A stretch of DNA of 64,000 nt, from the NCBI GenBank assembly GCA_002085025.1, contig MZGK01000002.1, positions 15,341 to 79,340 on the forward strand, given 5' to 3'. Positions 4,038 through 61,031 of this stretch are shown one piece after another. The position numbers and the translations under genes were made by a program. This DNA comes from Candidatus Omnitrophica bacterium 4484_213. Its GTDB lineage: Bacteria; Omnitrophota; 4484-213. The notes beneath the pieces were generated by a model. It was not told where the DNA came from, did not search any database, and saw only the letters and a list, made by a program, of their open reading frames with translations. The first letter of the stretch is position 1, and each line of letters starts with the position of its first letter.

Positions 4038-5658
4038 TCCGAATTATCAACGAATTTACCCCGTTAGAAAGCCCCGTTTCCTTCTTCCTTATAGGGGCAA
4101 ATTCCTTATAGGAACGATAAAGAAGTTGTTCCCATTTATACTTGATAGAATTAGTCATTAGGCATTCTAGAATTCTTTTTACTACCTGTTGGATACTCAT
4201 CTCTGTTGTATCAATATAAATCGCGTCTTTGACCCTTTTTAAAGGAGCAACCTTTCTTTCGCTGTCCTTTTTGTCTCTAATTTTGATATTTTGCTCAATT
4301 TTTTCCAGAGATAATTTTTCTCCTTGTAGAGCTCCTGGTTGAGTAAGGAGTTGCTTGTATCGCCGTTTTGTTCTTTCTTCTATAGAGGCGTCTAAGTAAA
4401 ATTTCTTTGCCTGCGGGAAGACAACACTTCCTATATCTCTGCCCTCAGCAACGATATCTTTCCCCTCGCTTATCTTCCGCTGCAAGATAACCATCCTTTT
4501 TCTTATTTCAGGGAGTTTTGCCAAATAGAAAACTTTATTGGTTATCTCCTCTTTTCGGATTTCCCTCTCCACATCTTTCCCATCGAGAAGCAAAACCGGT
4601 TTCTTCGCTTTTTTAAAGCGGAAATTAATCTCTGTTTCTTGACACATTTTTATCAAGCGAGCCTTATCTCTTAAGTCAATCCCCTCCTTTATTGCCTTTA
4701 AGGTAATCGCCCGATACATTGCCCCAGTATCTAAATAGTAAAAACCCAATTTGGCTGCTAATTTTTGGCTAACTGCGCTCTTTCCTGCTCCTGCAGGCCC
4801 GTCAATAGCAATAACTATTCTCTCCTCCTTTAATTTTTTCTGCCTCGCTTTTTTAAATTCCTTTGTTATTTCCTGTGAATCCCCCTTCTGAATTAAATCT
4901 CGCATTATTATTAAATGTTCAATAAAAGCCTCAAGGGCCCTGCTAATTTCTTCTTTGTTGTCTATGCAGATATCCCTTCGCAATGAAGCATCGCTTAAAG
5001 CAATGCGGGTTGAATCTTTCCAACCCTTAGCCGCATATTTTAGGTATCTCTCAGAGACGGAATTCACCAAACTTACGGCGGCAATATGGGGCAAATGGCT
5101 TATCTCGGCTACAATTTTATCGTGCTGAGCAGCAGAGGTAATTTTTGCCCTGCTTCCTACCTCTTCCCATAATTGTTTAACCTTTTTTAAAGCGGCTATA
5201 TCTGTTTTCTTTGATTTTATTAAAAAGGTAAGTGAGTTAGCGAAGAGATCTCTACGCGCAGCTCTCACTCCTTTCTTCTCTGAGCCGGCTAAGGGATGAC
5301 CGCCAACAAAATGGATTTCCCGCGGGAGAATTCTTTCTATTTCTTGTGTAATTTTCTTCTTAGTGCTACCTACATCGGTTATCAGAGAACCTGCACGCAA
5401 AAAAGGGATGATCTTCTGGACAGTAGAAACAACTTCTCCCACCGGGGTGCAGATAATTATTAACTCACTTTCTTGGGCATCTTTTAGTTTTAAACTTCCT
5501 TTATCTATCGCTCCGAGTTTCACTGCCTCCTCTATTGTCTTCTCATGTTTAGCAATGCCAAAGACTTGTCTTGCTAACTTTTTTCTCTTTATAACCAATC
5601 CTAAAGAACCACCGATTAGACCTGTGCCAATAATGGTAATTTTATTGAATTTTTTCAT
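3946..5658 (-). CDS. Prephenate dehydrogenase fused in frame to cytidylate kinase; the 3' end of the ORF reads through a repeat element
   Basis: N-terminus has IIGTGLIGGSLG and HPLAG (TyrA). From about nt 4815 downward it reads IAIDGPAGAGKS...YLDTGAMYR (Cmk). The C-terminal 35 aa (YKWEQLLYRSYKEFAPIRKKETGLSNGVNSLI) are a translation of the repeat at 4045-4142, so the true stop is uncertain. Confidence 0.75.
   Translation of the reverse strand: MKKFNKITIIGTGLIGGSLGLVIKRKKLARQVFGIAKHEKTIEEAVKLGAIDKGSLKLKDAQESELIIICTPVGEVVSTVQKIIPFLRAGSLITDVGSTKKKITQEIERILPREIHFVGGHPLAGSEKKGVRAARRDLFANSLTFLIKSKKTDIAALKKVKQLWEEVGSRAKITSAAQHDKIVAEISHLPHIAAVSLVNSVSERYLKYAAKGWKDSTRIALSDASLRRDICIDNKEEISRALEAFIEHLIIMRDLIQKGDSQEITKEFKKARQKKLKEERIVIAIDGPAGAGKSAVSQKLAAKLGFYYLDTGAMYRAITLKAIKEGIDLRDKARLIKMCQETEINFRFKKAKKPVLLLDGKDVEREIRKEEITNKVFYLAKLPEIRKRMVILQRKISEGKDIVAEGRDIGSVVFPQAKKFYLDASIEERTKRRYKQLLTQPGALQGEKLSLEKIEQNIKIRDKKDSERKVAPLKRVKDAIYIDTTEMSIQQVVKRILECLMTNSIKYKWEQLLYRSYKEFAPIRKKETGLSNGVNSLIIRNALLFFPLSGKDFFQNIFSPKSTGNRKYSF
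4045..4142 (+). repeat. REP-like element family 1 (atcaacgaatttaccccgttagaaagccccg...ggaacgataaagaagttgttcc...), copy 1
   Basis: Near-identical about-95-bp copy at 26548-26646. Contains hairpins gcccc...ggggc and ggaac-GATAAAGAAGTT-gttcc. Confidence 0.8.
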
Positions 5659-11711: not shown

Positions 11712-12462
11712 TCAATCCTCCGAACCTTCTATTCCTTTTTTTGAAATCAGCAATTGCCTCTAAAAAATCGCTCTTCTGAAAATCGGGCCAGAATTTTGGA
11801 GTGAAATAAAGTTCACTATAAGAAATCTGCCAGAGCAGAAAATTGCTGAGCCGCAGCTCGCCGCTGGTGCGAATCAAAAGGTCAGGGTCGGGAAGCTCTT
11901 TTGTGTAAAGATACTTAGAAAATAGACGCTCATCGATTTTATTTATCTTTACCTTCCTTTTTTGTATATCTTCAGCAATTTTTTTCACTGCGCTGATGAT
12001 TTCCTGGCGACTGCCATAATTTAAGGCAATGTTTAAGATCAACCCTTTGTTATTCTTGCTCAATTTCTCTGTTTTGCTCAACTCTTTTTGCACTGCCTTA
12101 GGCAACCTTTCTCTTTCGCCAATAGAAATAAGATGGATATTTTTTTCTTTTAGAAGTTCTCTTTTTTCTATCAGAAATTTTTTTAAAAGGCGCATTAAGC
12201 CCTGAACCTCTGAAGACGGACGTTTCCAGTTTTCTGAAGAAAAAGCGTAGAAGGTAAGGACTGCAATTTTTTGCTCAACTGCGGTTCTTATTATTTCTTC
12301 TACTGTTTCAATTCCCTTTTTATGGCCCTCAATGCGCGACAATCCCCTCTTTTTTGCCCAACGCCCGTTTCCATCCATTATAATGGCAATATGTTTTGGA
12401 CCTTTGGATAACTTCTGCATTTTAACAAGTGAAGTGTTTTTACTACTCTTAAAAAGTACCAA
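11692..12462 (-). CDS. uppS: Undecaprenyl diphosphate synthase; true start probably MQKLSKGPKHIAIIMDG at about 12420, because the N-terminal 14 aa of the ORF come from the repeat
   Basis: HIAIIMDGNGRWA...FSSENWKRP motifs. Confidence 0.9.
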   Translation of the reverse strand: MVLFKSSKNTSLVKMQKLSKGPKHIAIIMDGNGRWAKKRGLSRIEGHKKGIETVEEIIRTAVEQKIAVLTFYAFSSENWKRPSSEVQGLMRLLKKFLIEKRELLKEKNIHLISIGERERLPKAVQKELSKTEKLSKNNKGLILNIALNYGSRQEIISAVKKIAEDIQKRKVKINKIDERLFSKYLYTKELPDPDLLIRTSGELRLSNFLLWQISYSELYFTPKFWPDFQKSDFLEAIADFKKRNRRFGGLSVEENN

Positions 12463-12582
12463 GAAAAGTTTAAAATGTCTAATTGCTCTAATTAAATAAA
12501 AATTTGGTGATTGGTTATTATTTGGTTATTGTATCTTGGTGTTTGGTTATTATCTGTTTAGGTCAATTAGACATTAGACATC
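12456..12582. mobile_element. MITE-like element family 2 (TIR aatgtctaattg ... caattagacatt; internal TTGGTTATT subrepeats), internally deleted copy
   Basis: Shares both ends with the about-200-bp copy at 51741-51958, including flanking gtaccaagaaaagtttaaa. Confidence 0.7.
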
Positions 12583-13622: not shown

Positions 13623-13946
13623 TCACTTCCTCACATTATAAACTATATCATCGGCATCAAATTGATGGTTGCCGTCATTATCAAGGAAGATAACTACTGT
13701 CCCTGCTTTAGTATTATCTATTTTTACATCACTACCAGCCGGGTCTTTTGCCGTTATTGTCCCGCCAGTTCCGCATCCCCCATTTGCTACAGTTTCATTA
13801 GTAACACAGACCATCAACCCTGCTGTTCCCAACTTCTCCACCTGCTGGCCAATGGGAGTTACTACTGTGCGGATTTTAATTTCATCAGAGAGGCAAAGCC
13901 GCGAATAACAAAACTCGCGAAGCGAGAGCCGAAGTTCCCCCTGCAC
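13623..13946 (-). CDS. Small hypothetical protein. The N-terminal about 25 aa of the ORF are a translation of the structured repeat unit, so the real start is probably internal (e.g. MVCVTNET)
   Basis: MQGELRLSLREF is the same repeat-derived peptide seen at the C-terminus of ORF 56254..57138. The remainder (GGCGTGGTITAKDPAG...DNDGNHQFD) has no recognisable family. Confidence 0.3.
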   Translation of the reverse strand: MQGELRLSLREFCYSRLCLSDEIKIRTVVTPIGQQVEKLGTAGLMVCVTNETVANGGCGTGGTITAKDPAGSDVKIDNTKAGTVVIFLDNDGNHQFDADDIVYNVRK

Positions 13947-14025
13947 CAGAACGGTGCAGGATCCGCCGAAGCCTTAGCGTAGATGAGCTGAGGATAGAAG
14001 GTTTGAAAGCAAACCTTCACTATCC
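13913..14025 (+). ncRNA. Structured repeat unit (family 4): ctcgcgaagcgag-AGCCGAAG-[variable hairpin]-CTGAGGATAG-[GC hairpin]-T-run
   Basis: Same architecture as the units at 56262, 57783 and 60727. The terminal hairpin gaaggtttg-aaa-gcaaaccttc covaries with ggaaatctgc-aaa-gcagatttcc of the other copies. Confidence 0.6.
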
Positions 14026-26529: not shown

Positions 26530-28831
26530 TTAAAAGTAGAGAGATATCAACGAATTTACCCCGTTAGAAAGCCCCGTTTCCTTCTTCCTTATAGGGGCAA
26601 ATTCCTTATAGGAACGATAAAGAAGTTGTTCCCATTTATACTTGATAGTCAATATCTCAGGCAACTTTTCTATGTTTCTAGCTGTGGCTTGGGCAAAGTC
26701 AACCTTCCCCCCGCCTCTTCCATCCAGCTGCTCGGCAATTTCATTAATCACCTGTCCACAGTGAATTTTCCCGCTTAAATCTCTCGTGGTAGTCATTATT
26801 AAATAAATCTTATTATCCTTCACCGAGGCCAAGCCAATAACATCTAAATCTATCTTTTTTCTGAGAACATCGGAGATCTCTCTTAATTCAGGAAAATCAA
26901 AACCGAAGAACTGGCGAATAACTACATCCCTTTCCTTCTCCTGATTAAGAGAAGCAAAGATGTCCTTAGCATAATAACCAAATAATTCTCTTTTCAATCT
27001 CTCATTTCTCTTCTTCGACTCTTTTAGCTGCTGAATAATATCCTTTGCTTTCTCAATTATTTTTTTACGCGAAGCAGAAAAGATTTGGGCAAGCTCTTCA
27101 ATCTTGTTTTCTTCTTCTTTTATTAATTGATAAAGTCCTTCGGACATGGACACCACCACAAAATTCCTTACTGTAATTACCGATAGAAACAACTTGCACT
27201 TCTTCTCCATATTTCTCCTCAAACAAACCAATTGCCCCAGCCTCAATTGCTTTTTGTTTGGGCATTAATTCCCTTTCCACGGCGTCATTGTTTAAAATTC
27301 TATTATTAACCATTTCCTCTACCTTTGTCAACTCCTCTTTGGTTAAACCCCGGGGGTGGGTAAAGTCAAAATGGAAATAAGCCGGAAAGATAATGGAACC
27401 GGCCTGTCTGATATGTCTGCCCAGAATTTCTCTTAACACACTTTGCAAAATGTGAGTGGCTGTGTGATTGCGAGCAACATCTATCTCTTCTTCTCCCCAC
27501 ACCCCTAGCAAAGGTAATCCTTGCTTTTTTGCCCTTTCCTTTTCATCTTGCTTAGTAAAAATTTGTTTATTAAAAACTGATTTTTCTCTTGAACGCCGAC
27601 GTTGTTTTTCCACATATTGAATGAATTTCTGCCTATTTAACTCAATTCCTCTCTGGGAGACCAAATTTTCAATTTCTTCATAGGGAAGACCATAAGTATC
27701 ATAGAGTTCAAAAGCGGTTTTTTCGTTTATATCCTTTTTGTTATCTAAAATTGATATCGCTCGATTTATTGTTTGGATAAATTTCGCTTCTTCCTCTTTT
27801 ATTGTTTCTTTTATCCTTTTTTCTGCCTCTTTGACCTCAGGATAAACGCCCTCGGCGAGTTTGACAACAACTGGCACTAAATTATATAAAAAAGGAGATT
27901 CTATCTTTAAATCTCTCCCCAAACTGGCTGCCTTGCGAATCAACTTTCTAATTACATAGCCTTCCCTTTCATTAGCGGGAATAGCACCATCAGCAATGGT
28001 AAATACGACCGCTCGGATGTAATCAGCAATGATATAATGAGCGGGTAGCGGGTAGCGGGTAGCGGGTAGCGGGAGAGATTCTACGATTAGCTTGAAGAGG
28101 TCGGTTTCAAAGTCGTTTCGCACACCTTGGAGCACTGCAGTGAGTCGTTCCAGGCCCATCCCGGTATCAACATTCTTATTTTTCAATTCTTCTATTTTGC
28201 CCTTATCGCGATTAAACTGGGTAAACACAAGGTTCCACACCTCTATAGAGTTATCGGGGCAGAATTCTTCCCTGCCTTGCTGGCCAGTAGCTTCCCAATC
28301 ATAGAAAATTTCCGAACAAGGACCACAAGGCCCATCCGGACCCTCCTCCAGGGCATTGCTTGGCCAGAAATTCTCTCTCGAACCAAATTTTTTAATCCTT
28401 TCTTCAGGAAGCCCGATTTTCTTTTTCCATATTTGCGCGCTCTCTTCATCGTCTTCAAAGACTGAAACCCATAACTTCTCAGCCGGGAGGCTTAACTTTG
28501 AGGTCAAGAATTCCCATGCCCACTTAATCGCCTCTTCCTTATAATAATCCCCAAAAGAAAAATTGCCCAGCATCTCAAAGAATGTGTGGTGGCCTGGAAC
28601 CCTCCCTACTTCTTCTATATCGGCTGTCCGCAAGCACTTCTGACAGGAAGCCGCTCTTTTTAGATCTTTGGGTGGATGCAAAAAGAACTCCTTGAATTGA
28701 TTCATCCCTGCTGAGGTGAATAATAAGGAAGGGTCATCTTGGGGAAGCAGAGAAGATGAAGGAAAAATCTTGTGCCCCTTTTCCTTGAAGAAACTCAAAA
28801 ATTTCTCTCTGATTTCATTAGCAGTTGTCAT
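26530..28831 (-). CDS. alaS: Alanyl-tRNA synthetase, split into two overlapping ORFs (27098..28831 and 26530..27246) by a frameshift near nt 27150; the C-terminus reads into REP-like element
   Basis: N-terminal catalytic core (FTSAGMNQFK...), then FCGGVHV where the frame is lost, and the continuation SEGLYQLIKEE...DHHA1 GRGGGKVDFAQA in another frame. Confidence 0.8.
26548..26646 (+). repeat. REP-like element family 1, copy 2
   Basis: Near-identical to 4045-4142. Confidence 0.8.
28041..28073. repeat. Heptanucleotide tandem repeat (GCGGGTA)x4.7 inside the alaS coding sequence
   Basis: gcgggtagcgggtagcgggtagcgggtagcggg encodes LPATRYPLPA in frame. Confidence 0.8.
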
Positions 28832-40269: not shown

Positions 40270-40320
40270 AACTGCCTTCAGCAGGACATTAGGTCCTTCG
40301 TCGCTCGCTTACGCTCACTC

Positions 40321-40349
40321 CTCAGGATCAAATCTGCCGAAGGCAGATT
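40321..40349. repeat. Fragment of the family-4 module (cctcaggatc-aaatctgccgaaggcagattt hairpin) abutting the 3' end of tRNA-fMet
   Basis: Compare ctgaggatag-gaaatctgcaaagcagatttc in the other units. Confidence 0.45.
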
Positions 40350-40426
40350 TGGTAGCGGGGAGAGGATTCGAACCTCTGACCTTTAGGTTATGGGCCTAAC
40401 GAGCTACCAGGCTGCTCCACCCCGCA
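40350..40426 (-). tRNA. tRNA-Met (CAU), probably initiator tRNA-fMet
   Basis: Reverse complement TGCGGGGTGGAGCAGCCTGGTAGCTCGTTAGGCCCATAACCTAAAGGTCAGAGGTTCGAATCCTCTCCCCGCTACCA. The D and T arms are near-identical to E. coli tRNA-fMet. Positions 1:72 are unpaired (U.U) and the anticodon loop is CCCAUAA. Confidence 0.8.
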
Positions 40427-50089: not shown

Positions 50090-51796
50090 TCAGAAGAAAA
50101 ACAAAGGGTCAACATCTACTATTATCCTTTTATCTACTCTCTTTCGCTGAAACTCGGCTAATACTTTTCTCAGAGATTGATTTGTTTTGAGGACATTTTC
50201 TGTCCTCAAGGTAATATACCAGGAATTTAAAAAATTGGCCGGTCCTAAAATCCTCTCTTTGCCAAATTCCCTTCTTAAATCCTCTGATAACTCCGTTATT
50301 CTTTTCTTTAATCTCTGTTCGTCTTTGTCCTTTAAAATTATATTAATAAAATGTACAAAAGGAGGATACTTTAACTGGCGGCGATAGGTTATTTCCTGTG
50401 TGTAAAAATCCTCGTAATCTTCGCTGATAGCCGCAGTGATGCTGAAGTGAGCAGGGTTATAGGTTTGAATAATGAGTTCTGCTTTTGCCTGCTGGGCTTC
50501 CCTGGCTATCTGAAAAAGGAGCTCGAAGGTACGCTCACTTGCCAGGAAATTAGGAGAATTAAGGACACTATCGGCGGAGAGAACTCCTATTAAGCCCACC
50601 TGGAAAAAACTCTCGCCCTGCACTTTCCTCTGTCTGCCTAATTTCTCATAGATAATAACTCTTTTCTTCTTGGCCAGACATTCATCTATCTTTGCTTTTA
50701 AAAAAGGAGAAAGAGAAAGCCTCTCTTTGTTTCTATCTATTATCCTTATATTGGGAGAGATGTTATTGCCTCTTGTCTTTAACTTTAAAAGTTGATATCT
50801 CCCCGAAATGGTTTTATGATAGGATTCCAGGCAAGGGATAACGCTGCCTAAGACTACTATTGCTTTTTCTATCTTCGCTCTCTTGATTGCCACATTGCGG
50901 GCATTATAGCGAGGGATATTCTCCTCTTTGTAAGAATTGTCCTGCTCTTCGTCGACAATAATCAGCCCCAAGTTTTTCAAAGGCGAAAAGACCGCTGACC
51001 TCGTGCCAATGACAATCCGGGCATCTCCCTTCTTTATCCTCTGCCACTCTTGAAATTGCTGGCGAGAAGAAAGTTGAGAGTGGTACTCAGCAATTATCTC
51101 TCCAAAATGAGAAATAAATCTTGCAATTATCTGAGAAGCTAAAGAAATCTCAGGCACTAATATAATTACCCCTTTATTTTGGCTGAGAATGCTTTCAATT
51201 ATGTGCAGATAAATCTTTATTCTTTCCTCGCTTTGTCCATACACCAGAAAAGTCCGTGGCTGGTTCTCCTTCATTGCCCTGATAATCTTATCTGCGCCTA
51301 AAGGCGCCTCAGGTTTCAAATCTAAATTTTCTTTCTCCTCCACCCACCTGTAGCGCGGAGGTGCAAGCGAGGTCGCTCTTGTCTTTTGCACTCCCCTTCG
51401 CAAGGCCGGGGGGAGAGTTATCGCCAATGCCTCCCCCCAGGAGCAAAAGTAGTATTCCGAAAGCCATTTAACCAAAGATAACAAAGAAGAGGTGATAATC
51501 GGCTGGCTATCGATTACCTTTTTAATCTCTTTAACCTTCTTTAACTTCGATTCCTTGACTAATCCAACTATATAACCAACTGTCTTTTTGTTCCTAAATT
51601 CTACCCAGACCCTTTTGCCGATTTCAGCTTCTTCTCTTAGATGGTCGGGAACGGCGTAATCAAAAACTTTATCCACCGGAAGGTTTAAAACAATTTGGGC
51701 ATAGTTCATAACCAGGCTGTCGACTTTTCTAAAAGTAGCGAGTACCAAGAAAAGTTTAAAATGTCTAATTGCTCTAATTAAATAATAAATCACCAA
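50090..51796 (-). CDS. priA: Primosomal protein N' (PriA) homolog with degenerate Walker A and no Cys-rich zinc region; true start probably MNYAQIV at about 51706
   Basis: Aligns to E. coli PriA across the helicase core (LVPEISLASQ, IIVDEEQD, GTRSAVF), but GVTGSGKTE is replaced by YGQSEERIK and no CxxC clusters are seen. The first 30 aa of the ORF derive from the MITE. Confidence 0.75.
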   Translation of the reverse strand: MVIYYLIRAIRHFKLFLVLATFRKVDSLVMNYAQIVLNLPVDKVFDYAVPDHLREEAEIGKRVWVEFRNKKTVGYIVGLVKESKLKKVKEIKKVIDSQPIITSSLLSLVKWLSEYYFCSWGEALAITLPPALRRGVQKTRATSLAPPRYRWVEEKENLDLKPEAPLGADKIIRAMKENQPRTFLVYGQSEERIKIYLHIIESILSQNKGVIILVPEISLASQIIARFISHFGEIIAEYHSQLSSRQQFQEWQRIKKGDARIVIGTRSAVFSPLKNLGLIIVDEEQDNSYKEENIPRYNARNVAIKRAKIEKAIVVLGSVIPCLESYHKTISGRYQLLKLKTRGNNISPNIRIIDRNKERLSLSPFLKAKIDECLAKKKRVIIYEKLGRQRKVQGESFFQVGLIGVLSADSVLNSPNFLASERTFELLFQIAREAQQAKAELIIQTYNPAHFSITAAISEDYEDFYTQEITYRRQLKYPPFVHFINIILKDKDEQRLKKRITELSEDLRREFGKERILGPANFLNSWYITLRTENVLKTNQSLRKVLAEFQRKRVDKRIIVDVDPLFFF

Positions 51797-51958
51797 TAAT
51801 CAAGATATACCCTAGCGGGCACAGGCAAGATACAGACAAATTCCAATAACCAAACCAAAACAATAACTCTGTTTGGTCATTGGAATTTGGTGGTTGGTTA
51901 TTGTTTGGCTATTGTATCTTGGTGTTTGGTTATTATCTGTTTAGGTCAATTAGACATT
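51741..51958. mobile_element. MITE family 2, full-length copy (TIR aatgtctaattg / caattagacatt)
   Basis: About 200 bp, terminal inverted repeats at 51761-51771 and 51947-51957. Internal TTGGTTATT / AATAACCAA subrepeats. Related copies at 12456 and 33472. Confidence 0.7.
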
Positions 51959-52862
51959 ACCTGTTAAATAATTTCGCTGAAGGTGAAATTCCGCCGCCTA
52001 AGGCGAGGGAATTAACAGGGCAAATCCCTTCATAATCATAAAATCTTCCTCTTAATTGTGAGATGGGAGAAACCACACCAAGCAGGGTTTGAGCGGCAAA
52101 TTTCCCCAATGCGCAAATTATCCGCGGACGGATTATCCTTATTTGCTCTTTTAAATAAGGAAAGCAATTTTTAATCTCCTGAGGTAGAGGATTGCGGTTT
52201 CCCGGCGGTCGGCACTTTAGAATATTGGTAATATAGACATCTTCTCTCTTTAGACCTATGGACTGGATGATTCGGGTAAGGAGTTGTCCGGCTTTACCCA
52301 CGAATGGTTTTCCTTGCCTATCTTCCTCCTCCCCGGGCGCCTCTCCGACAAATAATAGAGAGGCCTCGTTATTTCCCTCGCCAAATACATAATGTGTTCT
52401 AGTTCTGGCAAGTGGGCACTTTGTACATTGGTGAACTATTTGAGAAAGAAGCTCGAGCTCTTGAGAAGAAGAAATAGAAGGATCAACTTCTTTCCCCTGA
52501 GTGGCTTTCAAAAACAAACCAATCTTGGGTTTGCGGCAGTCGCAACCATCTTCTTCGCGATGCGGGCAGTAATAGACCTCCATCTTTCCCCCTTCTCTTT
52601 TTACCTCTTCAATCATTCGTCGGGTAATCTCGTTTAGGGACTCCTGACTATAAATTCCCTTAGCTATTCCCGATTGATTAGAGATAACCTTAATTTCGTA
52701 CCCCTCTTCAGTCAATCTGCGGATTGCTTTTAAAGCATTGGGCAGAAAATGAAATTCCTCCCATCGAGTAACAAATTTTCTCTCGCCGGGATATCTATTA
52801 ATCACTCCATCGCGGTCTAAAAAGAGTATTTTTTGCATATTAGGTCCTTCGCTCAGGATCAC
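51957..52862 (-). CDS. Fusion protein: HAD-superfamily phosphatase (GmhB / DNA 3'-phosphatase-like) N-terminal domain plus family-4 uracil-DNA glycosylase C-terminal domain
   Basis: FLDRDGVIN...ISNQSGIAKG...YYCPHREEDGCDCRKP (HAD with GmhB-type zinc motif), then CTKCPLA...GEGNNEASLLFVGEAPGEEED...GKAG (UDG family 4). Confidence 0.7.
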   Translation of the reverse strand: MILSEGPNMQKILFLDRDGVINRYPGERKFVTRWEEFHFLPNALKAIRRLTEEGYEIKVISNQSGIAKGIYSQESLNEITRRMIEEVKREGGKMEVYYCPHREEDGCDCRKPKIGLFLKATQGKEVDPSISSSQELELLSQIVHQCTKCPLARTRTHYVFGEGNNEASLLFVGEAPGEEEDRQGKPFVGKAGQLLTRIIQSIGLKREDVYITNILKCRPPGNRNPLPQEIKNCFPYLKEQIRIIRPRIICALGKFAAQTLLGVVSPISQLRGRFYDYEGICPVNSLALGGGISPSAKLFNR

Positions 52863-52890
52863 CCAGCACTTTCAGAAAGTGCTGGGTGGT
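52861..52890. other. Short family-3-type hairpin cccagcactttc-a-gaaagtgctggg overlapping the 3' end of tRNA-Arg
   Basis: Seen directly. It shares the CCCAGCAC/GTGCTGGG stem of the long IR elements. Confidence 0.5.
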
Positions 52891-55818: not shown

Positions 55819-56238
55819 TTACCCCAACGTTTCAATCGCCTTATCATTATCTTCAACCTTCAAAATAAAACGACAGGGAGAAGTGCCCTCAGAAACAGTG
55901 CCATAGCAATACAGTAGATTAACACCTGCTGACTTTAATTTCGCCCCAATCTGGCTCAGTGCACCTATCTTATTTTCTAAATCAATCCTTACAACTTCTT
56001 CCTCTTCAACCTGCCACCCCTTTGTTTTAAGAGCGGGGATAACTTTCTGATTTTCCGAAGTAATGATGTAAAACTTCGCTTTTCCCTCTAAACCATGGGC
56101 ATTGATTGCTTCAATATTTACATCTGCCTCGCTTATGGCTTGACTTACCTCGGAAAGCATCCCAGCCTTATCTTCCGTAGTTATAACTAATTGACTTATC
56201 TTTATACCTGACTTCGGTTCAGGTCCTCTTTCTGTCAT
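55819..56238 (-). CDS. Tandem ACT-domain protein
   Basis: Two beta-alpha-beta-beta-alpha-beta modules (IKISQLVITTEDKAGMLSEV...; VRIDLENKIGALSQIGAKL...). Confidence 0.55.
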   Translation of the reverse strand: MTERGPEPKSGIKISQLVITTEDKAGMLSEVSQAISEADVNIEAINAHGLEGKAKFYIITSENQKVIPALKTKGWQVEEEEVVRIDLENKIGALSQIGAKLKSAGVNLLYCYGTVSEGTSPCRFILKVEDNDKAIETLG

Positions 56239-56253
56239 TTACACCTCCTTTCC

Positions 56254-57138
56254 TTACTCGCGAAGCGAGAGCCGAAGTTCCCCGTAGGGGAACTGAGGAT
56301 AGGAAATCTGCAAAGCAGATTTCCGCTTTTGTTTTTTTCCTTTCCTTACTAACGGACAACGCCCACAATCAGGTTTTGTCTTTTTGCAGATATCCTTTCC
56401 TAGACGCACAAAAAGGGCGTGGAACTCGTTGAACAATTGAGCATCTAAAGGTAGGTTCTGCATAAAAAGCTGTTGAATCTCCTGATAATCTGCCTTCTCG
56501 GAAATCAATTGGAGACGCGATAATATCCGGCGGGTATAAGCATCCACCACAAACACTGCTCTATTTCCCGCATAAAGCAAAATAGAATCGGCGGTCTCCC
56601 GACCAATACCTTTAATCTCCAATAACTCCTGACGGAGAAGATGCGTCTCTTTTTTAAACATCCTTTTGACACTACCGCCGTAATTAATAAACAGAAAATC
56701 TATAAACGCCTTCAGCTTTTTTGCTTTTTCATTAAAATAACCCGCAGAACGAATTGCCTTGGCTAAATCTTCGAGCGGCACATCCCTTAACCCTCGCGCC
56801 GAAAGCAACCCTTGTTCTTTGAGATTTCTGATCGCTTTCTCCACATTTGTCCAGGCCGTATTCTGGGTCAAGATTGCTCCGGCAATTATCTCAAGGGAAT
56901 CTTCTCCAGGCCACCAATTTTGTGGACCAAATGCCTTGTAGAGCCGCTGATAAATTGTCTGGATTTTCACCATCTCTTTCCCCCCTATAAAAACAGCAGA
57001 TTCCCGCCTGGATCTAAAAAGAGAAGAGAATCTCCCGCCATCTCCCTTTAACATCCTGCGCGATAACTTTAAATTTATACCAATATCTTTATTCAAACTA
57101 TTATCTATGAGAAGTGCACCTTTTCTTTTATTTTCCAA
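56254..57138 (-). CDS. HhH-GPD base-excision glycosylase (endonuclease III-like). The N-terminal about 57 aa and the C-terminal about 12 aa of the ORF are probably spurious (C-terminus is repeat-derived)
   Basis: GPQNWWPGEDSLEIIAGAILTQNTAWTNVEKAI...IKGIGRETADSILLYA HhH-GPD motifs. The C-terminal ...FPYGELRLSLRE is a translation of the family-4 unit. Confidence 0.65.
   Translation of the reverse strand: MENKRKGALLIDNSLNKDIGINLKLSRRMLKGDGGRFSSLFRSRRESAVFIGGKEMVKIQTIYQRLYKAFGPQNWWPGEDSLEIIAGAILTQNTAWTNVEKAIRNLKEQGLLSARGLRDVPLEDLAKAIRSAGYFNEKAKKLKAFIDFLFINYGGSVKRMFKKETHLLRQELLEIKGIGRETADSILLYAGNRAVFVVDAYTRRILSRLQLISEKADYQEIQQLFMQNLPLDAQLFNEFHALFVRLGKDICKKTKPDCGRCPLVRKGKKQKRKSALQISYPQFPYGELRLSLRE
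56262..56360 (+). ncRNA. Family-4 structured unit (ccttactcgcgaagcgag-AGCCGAAG-ttccccgtaggggaa-CTGAGGATAG-gaaatctgcaaagcagatttc-cgcttttgttttttt) plus abortive start of a second unit
   Basis: On the plus strand it ends in a canonical hairpin-plus-T7 intrinsic terminator. Its reverse complement ends ...CGCGAGTAAGGAAAGGAGGTGTAAATG, i.e. the SD and start of the ACT-domain gene. Confidence 0.65.
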
Positions 57139-57558: not shown

Positions 57559-57759
57559 TTATAACTTCACTACATTTGTGGCTTGTTCACCTTTAGAGCT
57601 TTGCTCGATATCAAACTCAACCTCCTGGCCTTCCTCCAAAGACTTAAAACCTTCACCCTGAATTGCACTATAATGTACAAATATGTCATTGCCTCCCTCA
57701 GGGGTAATAAATCCATAACCTTTCTGGTTGCTGAACCATTTCACCTTTCCTCTTGCCAT
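57559..57759 (-). CDS. cspA: Cold-shock protein
   Basis: [33 protein letters not shown] (RNP1/RNP2 motifs). 66 aa. Confidence 0.9.
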
Positions 57760-57770
57760 TACTTATTTCA

Positions 57771-58040
57771 CCTCCTTTCCTTACTCGCGAAGCGAGAGCC
57801 GAAGTTCCCCGTAGGGGAACTGAGGATAGGAAATCTGCAAAGCAGATTTCCGCTTTTGTCTTTTTCTTTCCTTACTCGCGAAGCGAGAGCCGAAGCCAGC
57901 CAATTTCCTTTTAAGGACAATAGAGAAGTTGTCCCTAATAATACCTGTAGCTTTAGCGCAGGTAGGCTGAGGATGGTCCCGAAGTTTCGGGGGGAATGGA
58001 GCAGGATAAATCTACTCTGCAAATTTCGCTCTCGTTTCCC
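57771..58040 (+). ncRNA. Two tandem family-4 structured units forming the long 5' leader of cspA (minus strand); the second unit is expanded with extra hairpins
   Basis: Unit A 57771-57866 is identical in its core to 56262-56345. Unit B 57867-58040 keeps ctcgcgaagcgag-agccgaag and ctgaggatgg but has a larger variable region including the ggacaATAGAGAAGTTgtcc hairpin. The reverse complement of the junction gives CGCGAGTAAGGAAAGGAGGTGAAATAAGTAATGGCAAGA (SD plus cspA start). Confidence 0.65.
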
Positions 58041-58044
58041 TAAT

Positions 58045-58140
58045 AAAACGAGTATAGCATATACTATTTTTTTCTACTTGTCAACCCTGTTAAATAACCT
58101 GGGGCAATTCGCCATAGGCGAATTATTTAACAGGGTTGAC
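58045..58140 (-). promoter_or_regulatory. Candidate cspA promoter (minus strand TTGACA-N17-TATGCT) overlapped by a 19-bp perfect inverted repeat ttgtcaaccctgttaaataa ... ttatttaacagggttgac with inner hairpin ggcaattcgcc/ggcgaattatt
   Basis: The motifs are visible. The -35 hexamer is part of the palindrome arm, a classic operator arrangement. Confidence 0.4.
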
Positions 58141-58154
58141 TAAATTAATCTAAA

Positions 58155-60361: not shown

Positions 60362-60717
60362 TTATCCTGAGATTTTCTTTAGTAAATCTGCAAATCTCTT
60401 GGCAAATCTTTGGCAGTTAGCTTCTACCCTTTTGTCCAAAGCGCCAATGGCTACCGGGCCATAGTGGTCGCCCTCGGAGTCGCCCTGAACAACCATTCCG
60501 TGAATAAGCATTGCCTCTAAAATGCTCAAGATAGCGGTTTCATTTCCTCCGCCGATATTATTAGAAGAAGTGAATGCTCCTCCTATTTTTCCATCCAACT
60601 TTCCTCAACCCTTTTAAGAATAACCTCCAGATTTTCTTTTTTAATGGACTCAGCGATTGTCTCAGCCATCTGTTTGGTATTCCCTGTCTTTGAATAATAA
60701 GCAATCAATACCTTCAT
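60362..60717 (-). pseudogene. WrbA-like flavodoxin (NAD(P)H:quinone oxidoreductase) in two frames with the central about 70 aa absent
   Basis: MKVLIAYYSKTGNTKQMAETIAESIKKENLEVILKRVEE (WrbA N-terminus) ends at stop 60583. A second frame gives LDGKIGGAFTSSNNIGGGNETAILSILEAMLIHGMVVQGDSEGDHYGPVAIGALD (WrbA C-terminal half). Confidence 0.5.
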
Positions 60718-61025
60718 TTTGTACCTTTTTTCCTTACTCGCCGAAGGCGAGAGCCGAAGCCCGCCTACGCTCGTAGGCGGGCTGAGGATAGGAAATCTGC
60801 AAAGCAGATTTCCGCTTTTTGTCTTTTCCTTTCTCGCGAATCGAGAGCCTGCCTGCGCCCGTAAGGGTAAGCGAAACGAAGGATAGAAATGGACGAAGTC
60901 CATTTCGCTTTTATTTATTTCCTTTCTTTGCTCGCCAGTTCCTTTTAAGGGCAATAGAGAAGTTGCCCCTAATTATACCTGAAGGTGAGAGCCAAAGCCT
61001 CGAGAGTTCAAGGCTGAGGATAAAA
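60718..61025 (+). ncRNA. Three tandem family-4 structured units between the flavodoxin gene and the wrbA-like gene
   Basis: Unit 1 (60727-60815) has ctcgccgaaggcgag and cccgcctacgctcgtaggcggg as covarying substitutes for hairpins 1 and 2. Unit 2 (60822-60905) has ctcgcgaatcgag and a terminal hairpin aaatggacgaagtccattt plus T-run. Unit 3 (60910-61025) carries gggcaATAGAGAAGTTgccc and ends ctgaggataaaag. Confidence 0.65.
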
Positions 61026-61031
61026 GTATAG

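Follow-up and report, generated by a model that had tools for sequence, protein, structure and literature searches.

The 64,000-nucleotide stretch analysed here (hereafter the window) comes from Candidatus Omnitrophica bacterium 4484_213 (contig MZGK01000002.1, positions 15,341 to 79,340) and carries, immediately upstream of the cold-shock gene cspA, a tandem array of short hairpin-rich units that recur elsewhere in the window. A first-pass annotation had described them as a novel structured RNA element forming the cspA 5′ leader, either a new thermosensor or ligand-sensing leader or a mobile leader module with an antisense-facing terminator. The cspA gene, recognised from sequence, its open reading frame (ORF) and its CSD domain (PF00313), lies on the minus strand, with its start codon at 57757-57759 and its Shine-Dalgarno (SD) sequence GGAGGTG at 57769-57775. 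Read along the plus strand, the region 57771-58040 begins with CACCTCC, the antisense of this SD, followed by the junction TTTCCTTA (57776-57783), which is present at every unit boundary, and by the first hairpin (HP1) of the gene-proximal unit. This unit, B (57784-57874, plus strand; 103.5 bits with the covariance model described below, and holding a terminator-like site), consists of HP1, CTCGC-GAA-GCGAG (57784-57796), the linker AGCCGAAG (57797-57804), a second hairpin (HP2), TTCCCC-GTA-GGGGAA (57805-57819), the linker CTGAGGATAG (57820-57829), a third hairpin (HP3), GGAAATCTGC-AAA-GCAGATTTCC (57829-57851), and a T-run with the next junction, GCTTTTGTCTTTTTCTTTCCTTA (57852-57874). Unit C (57875-57992, plus strand), identified by sequence and covariance model, lacks a T-run and comprises HP1 (57875-57887), a linker (57888-57895), an HP2 split by a nested repeat of a second family (family D2; about 57896-57966), the linker CTGAGGATGG (57967-57976) and an HP3 reading TCCCGAAGTTTCGGGG (57977-57992). 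Next to it lies the 5′ part of the predicted cspA leader (57993-58046, minus strand), delineated by alignment with relatives and by inverted repeats with units B and C, and then the predicted cspA promoter, TTGACA-17-TATGCT (58056-58084, minus strand; 10 of 12 in the promoter scan), which is kept in loci L048, L052 and L055. From the position of this promoter, the cspA array is predicted to lie inside a 5′ untranslated region (UTR) of ~290 nucleotides.

Three further arrays, likewise on the plus strand, complete the set. Unit A (56250-56349) forms a one-unit array directly upstream of, and antisense to, an ACT-domain gene; units E, F and G (60730-61031) form a three-unit array between two flavodoxin-type genes, unit G lacking HP3 and holding a nested copy of the second repeat family within the HP1 loop; and unit D (13907-14025), with a composite HP2 and no adjoining SD, stands alone past the stop codon of a gene for a putative formyltransferase, which we take to be purN-like. 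The earlier statement that every copy ends at the SD and start of a gene is thus accurate for the gene-proximal unit of three of the four arrays (cspA, ACT and flavodoxin-like) and does not apply to the unit at 13907. As a separate observation, a palindromic module with arms AACAGGGTTGAC (58072-58150) holds the −35 element of the predicted cspA promoter together with a mirror-image promoter-like site on the other strand; the same module also occurs upstream of the ACT gene in L030, L048 and L052.

To delimit the family, we derived a covariance model of 82 positions and 21 pairs from 17 units and ran it over the window with filters off. The model returned exactly seven units in four arrays, all on the plus strand (13907-14025, 56250-56331, 57777-57858, 57868 to ~58000, 60730-60820, 60826-60914 and ~60930 to 61023), with no other significant match in the window, and gave 68 matches over the window and 32 loci. 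This search, which the first-pass annotation had proposed, confirmed both the recurrence of the module at least seven times and the claimed order HP1, AGCCGAAG, HP2, CTGAGGATAG, HP3 plus T-run, and added further matches in relatives. The exact core CTCGCGAAGCGAGAGCCGAAG occurs four times in the window against 0 expected by chance, and CTGAGGATRG five times against 0.25 expected; the single-stranded linker kept across units amounts to only ~18 nucleotides. A GC-rich HP3 followed by a T-run, as in an intrinsic terminator, was scored on the plus strand for four of the seven window units. The T-run is missing from several units (C and G, L008 and L038). The units have no match in Rfam 15, whether at the gathering score or at E≤10, in agreement with their earlier placement outside known RNA families; the sole nearby match, to the cspA thermoregulator model, scored 32 bits, where the gathering score is 78, and mainly covers coding sequence. 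Several other identities were considered and rejected. A hammerhead-like reading of CTGAGGA finds neither GAAA nor stem III, and no Rfam ribozyme matched at E≤10; integron attC sites do not fit an architecture of three separate short hairpins with no R′/R″ boxes; in a CRISPR reading, the “spacers” would be palindromes of few types; and no convincing outward promoter was found within the unit, the cspA promoter sitting upstream of the array.

Relatives were sought in species-representative genomes and metagenome contigs with the pattern GAGAGCCGAAG-N10-40-CTGAGGATAG. In these scans, true copies came only from metagenome-assembled genomes of Candidatus Omnitrophota (AUK068 and CSMAG_2090) and from a few metagenomes, one of which has contigs 100% identical to parts of the window. 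Matches in L002, L004, L021, L023, L028, L029, L034-L036, L041 and L043-L045 were excluded as chance hits to unrelated taxa without hairpins. A full-text literature search found no paper joining Omnitrophota and repetitive elements, and the repeat-rich intergenic architecture of this uncultivated phylum is apparently documented here for the first time.

Cassette exchange and unit turnover

Hairpin formation is clearly maintained across the family. In the model-fitted alignment, 93.9% of cells pair, compared with 71% in shuffles, and both sides have changed in 16 of the 21 pairs, with HP1 nearly invariant. The apparent covariation, however, comes largely from discrete palindromic cassettes. The HP2 slot is occupied by TTCCCC-GNA-GGGGAA, CCCCGAA-AC-TTCGGGG, CCCGCCTACG..CGTAGGCGGG or TCCGCC-NAA-GGCGGA, and the HP3 slot by GGAAATCTGC-NAA-GCAGATTTCC, AAGGTTTGC..GCAAACCTT, TCCGCC-AAA-GGCGGA or TCCCGAA-AC/GT-TTCGGGA. 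Two cassette types, CCCCGAA..TTCGGGG and TCCGCC..GGCGGA, are found in both slots, and a cassette loop is seen in either orientation. The compensatory substitution reported from the first inspection is real insofar as pairing is kept and gradual change is present within the HP3 GAAATCTGC/AAGGTTTGC series, but the differences between units are largely cassette replacements. The proposal of selection on RNA structure rather than recent copying was likewise overstated: units A and B (56239-56342 and 57766-57869) are 97% identical over 104 nucleotides, flanks included, a likeness that stems from recent copying or gene conversion.

The hairpins also carry little indication of a transcribed strand. 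Among 87 distinct hairpins, stem wobbles show no strand bias (11 G-T and 10 A-C), and wobble asymmetry was accordingly rejected as a marker of the transcribed strand; the RNA fold energy of the cspA leader is equal on the two strands (−102.8 and −103.4 kcal/mol). The loops themselves are asymmetric, with GAA found 16 times and TTC not once, and with a closing C-G pair in 46 of the 87 hairpins. Together with the closing pair, the plus-strand loops give GCGAAGC, a GNA triloop known as an extraordinarily stable DNA mini-hairpin (PMC13037366, PMC3201870). Taken together, the unbiased wobbles, the equal folds and the loop asymmetry mean that conserved pairing is no argument for an RNA over a DNA palindrome. 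Cassette-swapping palindromic repeats can thus mimic RNA covariation, which calls for caution in covariation-based RNA discovery in metagenomes.

Comparison of orthologous sites revealed extensive turnover of the units. An identical 66-aa CspA is encoded on many contigs, with the promoter TTGACA-17-TATGCT, the SD and the start region the same throughout, the SD and spacer being identical in relatives without units. The leader in between holds no unit in AUK068, L053 and L054 (sequence ...GCGAAATTTGCGGA|AAGGAAAGGAGGTGAAATAAGTAATG). In L055 it has one partial unit accompanied by a different small repeat, and in the window, L051 and L056 it has two units. Similarly, the spacer between the HhH-GPD glycosylase and ACT genes is free of units in L047, L048 and L049, whose ACT proteins are 86-89% and 69% identical; these relatives have another spacer sequence with its own SD, TTGGAGGTGCAAAATG, and their similarity to the window starts at GGAGGTG. 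The same spacer in AUK068 contains the promoter module and at least two detected units. Between the window and L030, with flanks 99% identical, the 3′ half of HP3 and ~115 nucleotides differ; L011 has two units where L027 has one chimeric unit (flanks 97% identical); L018 and L032 (95%) differ by replacement of both variable hairpins with the flanks unchanged; and L005 and L042, 96% identical, carry different repeat families after the same tRNA-Ala. Such presence/absence polymorphism at orthologous sites is what is expected of miniature inverted-repeat transposable elements. The prospect, raised at the outset, that the units would turn out to be recent identical copies of such elements is borne out in part, in that units are gained and lost. 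This turnover points to unstable, recombining repeat DNA and not to a conserved sensor, and the array before cspA appears to be dispensable.

The cspA leader was also inspected for features of a riboswitch or RNA thermometer. A degenerate inverted short unit at 58000-58046 (CTCGTT..AACGAG AGC GAAATTTGC...) is kept in relatives without units B and C; it forms imperfect inverted repeats with these two units, and long-range pairing between them is predicted. AUK068 is without units B and C, so this pairing cannot exist there. The SD is unpaired in both the minimum-free-energy and the centroid fold of the sense leader, and neither SD masking nor a sense-strand terminator or antiterminator was found, the T-run terminator being on the antisense strand. 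Conservation in orthologous leaders is equally lacking (0, 1 or 2 units at cspA, none before the ACT gene in L047-L049), as is a functionally coherent set of genes. The proposal of a new thermosensor or ligand-sensing leader is therefore not sustained: the array is absent from a near-identical cspA leader and from the orthologous ACT spacer, and unit number and hairpin content vary at 95-99% flank identity. With this, a false riboswitch or thermosensor candidate is removed. The alternative offered alongside it, a mobile leader module with an antisense-facing terminator, broadly fits units that lie in the predicted cspA 5′ UTR, antisense to protein genes, and that are gained and lost.

Between strains, the repeats reshape not only leaders and intercistronic spacers but also the ends of genes. 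At 56254-56350 (minus strand), the HhH-GPD glycosylase ORF traverses unit A completely and ends with the TAA of GAGTAAGG, so that its C-terminal tail is encoded by the repeat; its 3′ end differs in strain L030 and in AUK068. The neighbouring ACT-domain gene contains, at ~56196-56228 (minus strand), a 27-nucleotide in-frame insertion with the hairpin ACCTGAACCGAAGTCAGGT in its N-terminal codons, so that its N-terminus reads MTERGPEPKSGIKISQL where the L047 and L048 orthologues have MAEKIGQL. In L048, whose ACT protein is 89% identical, a run of N (130-229) lies exactly where the cspA leader array would sit, which suggests that the repeats break assemblies. Downstream of the three-unit array, an FMN_red flavodoxin-like gene (60362-60717, minus strand) is split into ORFs of 44 and 78 aa, through either a frameshift or an assembly error, and the same gene is intact (141 aa) on contig L059.

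Placement and orientation of the arrays

Of the 59 ORFs of at least 90 aa in the window, 58 are on the minus strand, and the only one on the plus strand (57583-58143) crosses the repeat array and is an artefact. Because all credible ORFs point the same way, the window by itself cannot separate gene direction from replication direction. We therefore considered the window and the loci together, where almost every array is antisense to the protein genes on either side and extends across the spacer, starting at or close to the stop codon of the upstream gene and reaching the SD of the downstream one. The HP1-side flank was classified for 40 arrays, a few of which are orthologous sites in close relatives and thus not all independent. 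In 26 of these, CCTCC lies exactly 8 nucleotides from HP1, with TTTCCTTA between them, and the start codon follows 5-9 nucleotides beyond CCTCC; another small repeat abuts the HP1 side in six, and the remainder are tRNA ends or other contexts. In four cases (Ala-TGC, Cys, Ala-GGC and Val), a unit comes directly after the CCA end of a tRNA gene. These units are sense to the tRNA, as expected of a terminator at a transcript end, whereas units at protein genes are antisense, and the sampled arrays include no sense unit behind a protein gene. Units after rRNA or other stable RNAs were also looked for, in loci that hold only tRNAs and one group I intron and no rRNA gene. Both orientations occur within one co-directional run in L019, which has a sense unit after tRNA-Cys and antisense units between the downstream protein genes. 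Orientation therefore follows the neighbouring feature and not the direction of replication, and a replication-strand cause was rejected on this ground.

The genes downstream of the arrays encode CspA, the ACT-domain protein, flavodoxin-like proteins, HU/IHF (two), a UVR-motif protein, RibH (lumazine synthase), PanD, BCCP, KARI, FBA (class II aldolase), GroES and DnaK. They are largely housekeeping genes that are expected to be highly expressed and are not a regulon with a common signal; the “stress flavour” ascribed to the downstream genes in the first-pass annotation does not hold up over 25 or more of them, whose functions are unrelated. A fixed junction to ribosome-binding sites and tRNA ends, with the opposite orientation in each, is unusual for bacterial interspersed repeats. 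The shared CCNCC(A/T) at this junction suggests targeted insertion or microhomology-anchored recombination, and if the placement does reflect targeting, it would represent a new insertion specificity.

Explanations for the repeat family

We consider it likely, with a probability of roughly 70%, that the units are a family of small interspersed mosaic repeats, non-coding and lineage-specific, in Candidatus Omnitrophota, of the same kind as bacterial interspersed mosaic elements (BIMEs), BOX and SPRITE, and fitted with a one-way terminator. The family is previously undescribed, and its placement is unusual and sharply defined. According to this explanation, a scaffold of short conserved linkers (CCTTA, AGCCGAAG, CTGAGGATAG and the T-run) would join three perfect palindromic hairpins, the second and third being drawn from a small set of interchangeable cassettes. 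Tandem arrays would expand, contract, vanish and swap cassettes on the time-scale of strain divergence, probably by unequal crossing-over, ectopic gene conversion or template switching at hairpins. New arrays would be seeded at a fixed junction beside CCNCC(A/T), that is, the antisense of a strong SD or a tRNA CCA end. HP3 and the T-run would act as a unidirectional intrinsic terminator. Selection would remove sense insertions from operons because of their polarity, leaving mRNA leaders and intercistronic spacers with units in the non-terminating, antisense direction only, and the terminating direction would be tolerated after tRNA genes, where it is harmless or useful; this would explain the orientation bias. 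Within spacers, a unit would be transcribed together with the genes, as a series of stable hairpins that stops immediately 5′ of an exposed SD, and any effect on mRNA stability or antisense transcription would be a side-effect or a secondary co-option. Secondary benefits of this sort, namely mRNA stabilisation and antisense insulation, are possible.

The closest parallels come from several known repeat systems. In agreement with repetitive extragenic palindromic (REP) sequences and BIMEs, the units are short palindromes in extragenic mosaic clusters with conserved linkers. Like E. coli BIMEs, they are short and GC-rich, are variable between strains in copy number and composition, keep their stems paired through two-sided changes, and are extragenic yet (here by prediction) transcribed, often between genes of one operon. 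They differ from BIMEs in showing no sequence similarity, in being direct tandem and not alternating units, in their T-run terminator, and in being anchored to a downstream SD and start or a tRNA 3′ end where BIMEs are anchored to the 3′ end of the upstream gene. A GTAG-type motif is absent as well; GAAG, ATAG or CTTA precede the hairpins, and the units are in direct orientation. The pneumococcal BOX (boxA-boxB(n)-boxC) and terminator-like SPRITE repeats have been interpreted as mobile and largely parasitic, with a placement shaped by tolerance (Croucher et al. 2011, PMC3049150). They share with the Omnitrophota units a modular, strongly folded build with a variable number of internal modules, one family resembling Rho-independent terminators. 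SPRITE is enriched at convergent gene 3′ ends, whereas the Omnitrophota units are found almost only between co-directional genes, antisense and abutting the next SD; they also have swappable hairpin cassettes, belong to a different phylum and show no sequence relation. Mycobacterial interspersed repetitive units (MIRUs), which Supply et al. reportedly described in 1997 as tandem 46-101 bp units in operon spacers, are said to resemble the present units in filling intercistronic spacers with direct tandem units of fixed orientation to the genes, in overlapping the upstream stop and downstream start region with their ends, and in strain-polymorphic unit number, but to have neither hairpin cassettes, terminator nor association with tRNA ends. 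Two looser parallels are the very small nested repeats of cyanobacteria, reportedly described by Elhai et al. in 2008, which are said likewise to sit inside hairpins of other repeats, and the palindromic elements of Rickettsia that are inserted in frame in genes, to be compared with the single in-frame hairpin at the ACT N-terminus of the window. Both differ from the Omnitrophota units in sequence, host and unit architecture.

Several observations weigh against an interspersed mosaic repeat family of this kind. No transposase was found in ~0.3 Mb of window and loci (tblastn with IS200-like TnpA gave nothing below E=0.4). The units have no terminal inverted repeats, their ends (CCTTA... and ...T-run) not being complementary and the inverted repeats being internal only, and there is no unambiguous target-site duplication, the 12-nucleotide direct repeat TCCTTTCCTTAC that flanks unit A being the same as a normal unit-to-unit junction and so perhaps belonging to the unit itself. 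The unit-free AUK068 cspA leader still carries AAGGAAAGGAGGTG, so gain and loss cannot be polarised there. Similarly, the exact AAGGAAAGGAG occurs in the window only beside units, yet is also present in this unit-free leader; it may belong to the element, mark the site of a lost unit or be native to cspA. Units persist at orthologous sites where the flanks are only 75-87% identical, and both the fixed 8-nucleotide distance to CCTCC and the enrichment upstream of genes with presumed high expression (CspA, HU, GroES and DnaK) could reflect a selected RNA-level role. Finally, the loci were found with an exact-linker pattern, and linker conservation is thereby overestimated.

A further, unlikely explanation is that the units are site-specific, single-stranded-DNA mobile elements of the REP/RAYT type or protein-less IS200/IS605 derivatives, in which an HUH transposase encoded elsewhere would recognise the plus-strand mini-hairpins and insert 3′ of CCNCC(A/T). 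A protein-less IS200/IS605-type element is compatible with the restriction of GNA loops to one strand and with the fixed CCNCC-proximal junction. Specifically, the GAA/GNA triloops closed by C-G (GCGAAGC) occur on one strand only, the junction to CCTCC or tRNA ...CCA is fixed whatever the direction of the neighbouring gene, tandem arrays would be expected if each unit regenerated its target at its far end, and a smaller repeat is nested inside loops. Against these stand the lack of an IS200-like TnpA in the window and loci, a small sample, and of a conserved cleavage motif of the GTAG type; HP1 is preceded by a variable base (TTA, TTT, TTC, TTG), cassette swaps with unchanged flanks resemble recombination and not transposition, and the unit-free cspA leader keeps the junction sequence.

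More doubtful is a domesticated RNA-level expression module, whose hairpins would protect the 3′ end of the upstream mRNA and the 5′ end of the downstream mRNA from nucleases and whose adjacent consensus SD, GAAAGGAGGTG, would drive strong translation. A precedent exists in REP and BIME elements, which stabilise the mRNA upstream of them, and in the stabilising effect of 5′ hairpins and “STAB-SD” sequences on mRNAs. The constant position of 26 of the 40 arrays, immediately 5′ of a strong, exposed SD, the enrichment upstream of genes for proteins expected to be highly expressed (CspA, two HU, GroES, DnaK, KARI and FBA) and the presence of units at orthologous sites with flanks 75-87% identical all accord with such a role. 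However, the units are dispensable at cspA and the ACT gene in close relatives, and the strand that shows the preference for GAA loops, with TTC never seen, is the one antisense to the mRNAs. Moreover, highly expressed genes own the strongest SDs, so that an insertion bias anchored to CCTCC predicts the same enrichment.

We are similarly sceptical of a selected one-way terminator or insulator, which would end tRNA transcripts in the sense direction and block antisense transcription into highly expressed operon genes while sense transcription passes. The canonical hairpin and T-run on the plus strand, the sense orientation directly after four tRNA genes, the antisense orientation in nearly all protein-gene spacers and the precedent of terminator-like SPRITE repeats (PMC3049150) speak for it. 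Yet HP3 and the T-run alone would suffice for this function, leaving HP1, HP2 and the linkers unexplained; several units (C, G and those in L008 and L038) have no T-run, no sense unit in the sample follows a protein gene, the place where terminators are most needed, and selection against polar insertions explains the orientation bias equally well.

It is tempting to speculate, although we think it improbable, that the family represents a new kind of site-specific mobile DNA that targets CCNCC(A/T). This motif is common to tRNA 3′ ends and to the strand opposite a strong SD, whose sequence is that of the 16S rRNA 3′ tail, and such elements would therefore home to both: to stable-RNA 3′ ends and, through mimicry, to ribosome-binding sites at the genes with the strongest translation, where they would install a hairpin leader in the only harmless terminator orientation. 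The weakest explanation, a riboswitch or RNA thermometer that acts in cis as a structured leader of cspA and other stress genes and senses temperature or a ligand through an alternative structure, can draw on the location of the array in the predicted cspA 5′ UTR, the strongly maintained hairpin pairing and some stress-related downstream genes (CspA, GroES and DnaK), but is extremely unlikely, being already largely refuted by the presence/absence data at near-identical cspA leaders and orthologous ACT-gene leaders, and faced as well with variable copy number, interchangeable hairpins, a conserved single-stranded linker of only ~18 nucleotides, an SD that is unpaired in the minimum-free-energy fold, no strand preference, units after tRNAs on the other relative strand, heterogeneous downstream genes and no Rfam match.

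Other repeats in and around the window

The second small repeat family, TTCCTTTTAAGGRCAATAGAGAAGTTGYCCCTAATWATACCTG, is nested in the HP2 of unit C (57896-57960) and in the HP1 loop of unit G (60937-60983), with further copies near 1498, 4102, 17273 and 26602. A variant of it ending in ...TATATTACTTTTCCTTT stands just 5′ of HP1 in 6 of the 40 arrays. Another modular element follows tRNA genes in the window (40288-40352 and 52839-52889, both on the minus strand) and also occurs in L005, L008 and L015; its order is hairpin, GATCCTGAG, optional hairpin, CGAAGGACCTAAT, and its linkers resemble the reverse complement of the unit linkers. Two other repeat families are represented by a 104-nucleotide perfect intergenic duplicate, whose copies (4045-4148 and 26545-26648) are 22.5 kb apart, and by an intergenic pair at 12455-12576 and 51741-51959, ~96-98% identical and 39 kb apart. 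Lastly, an AUK068 contig that also holds units (L010) carries a group I intron (Rfam RF00028, 78 bits) at 2286-2500 on the minus strand.

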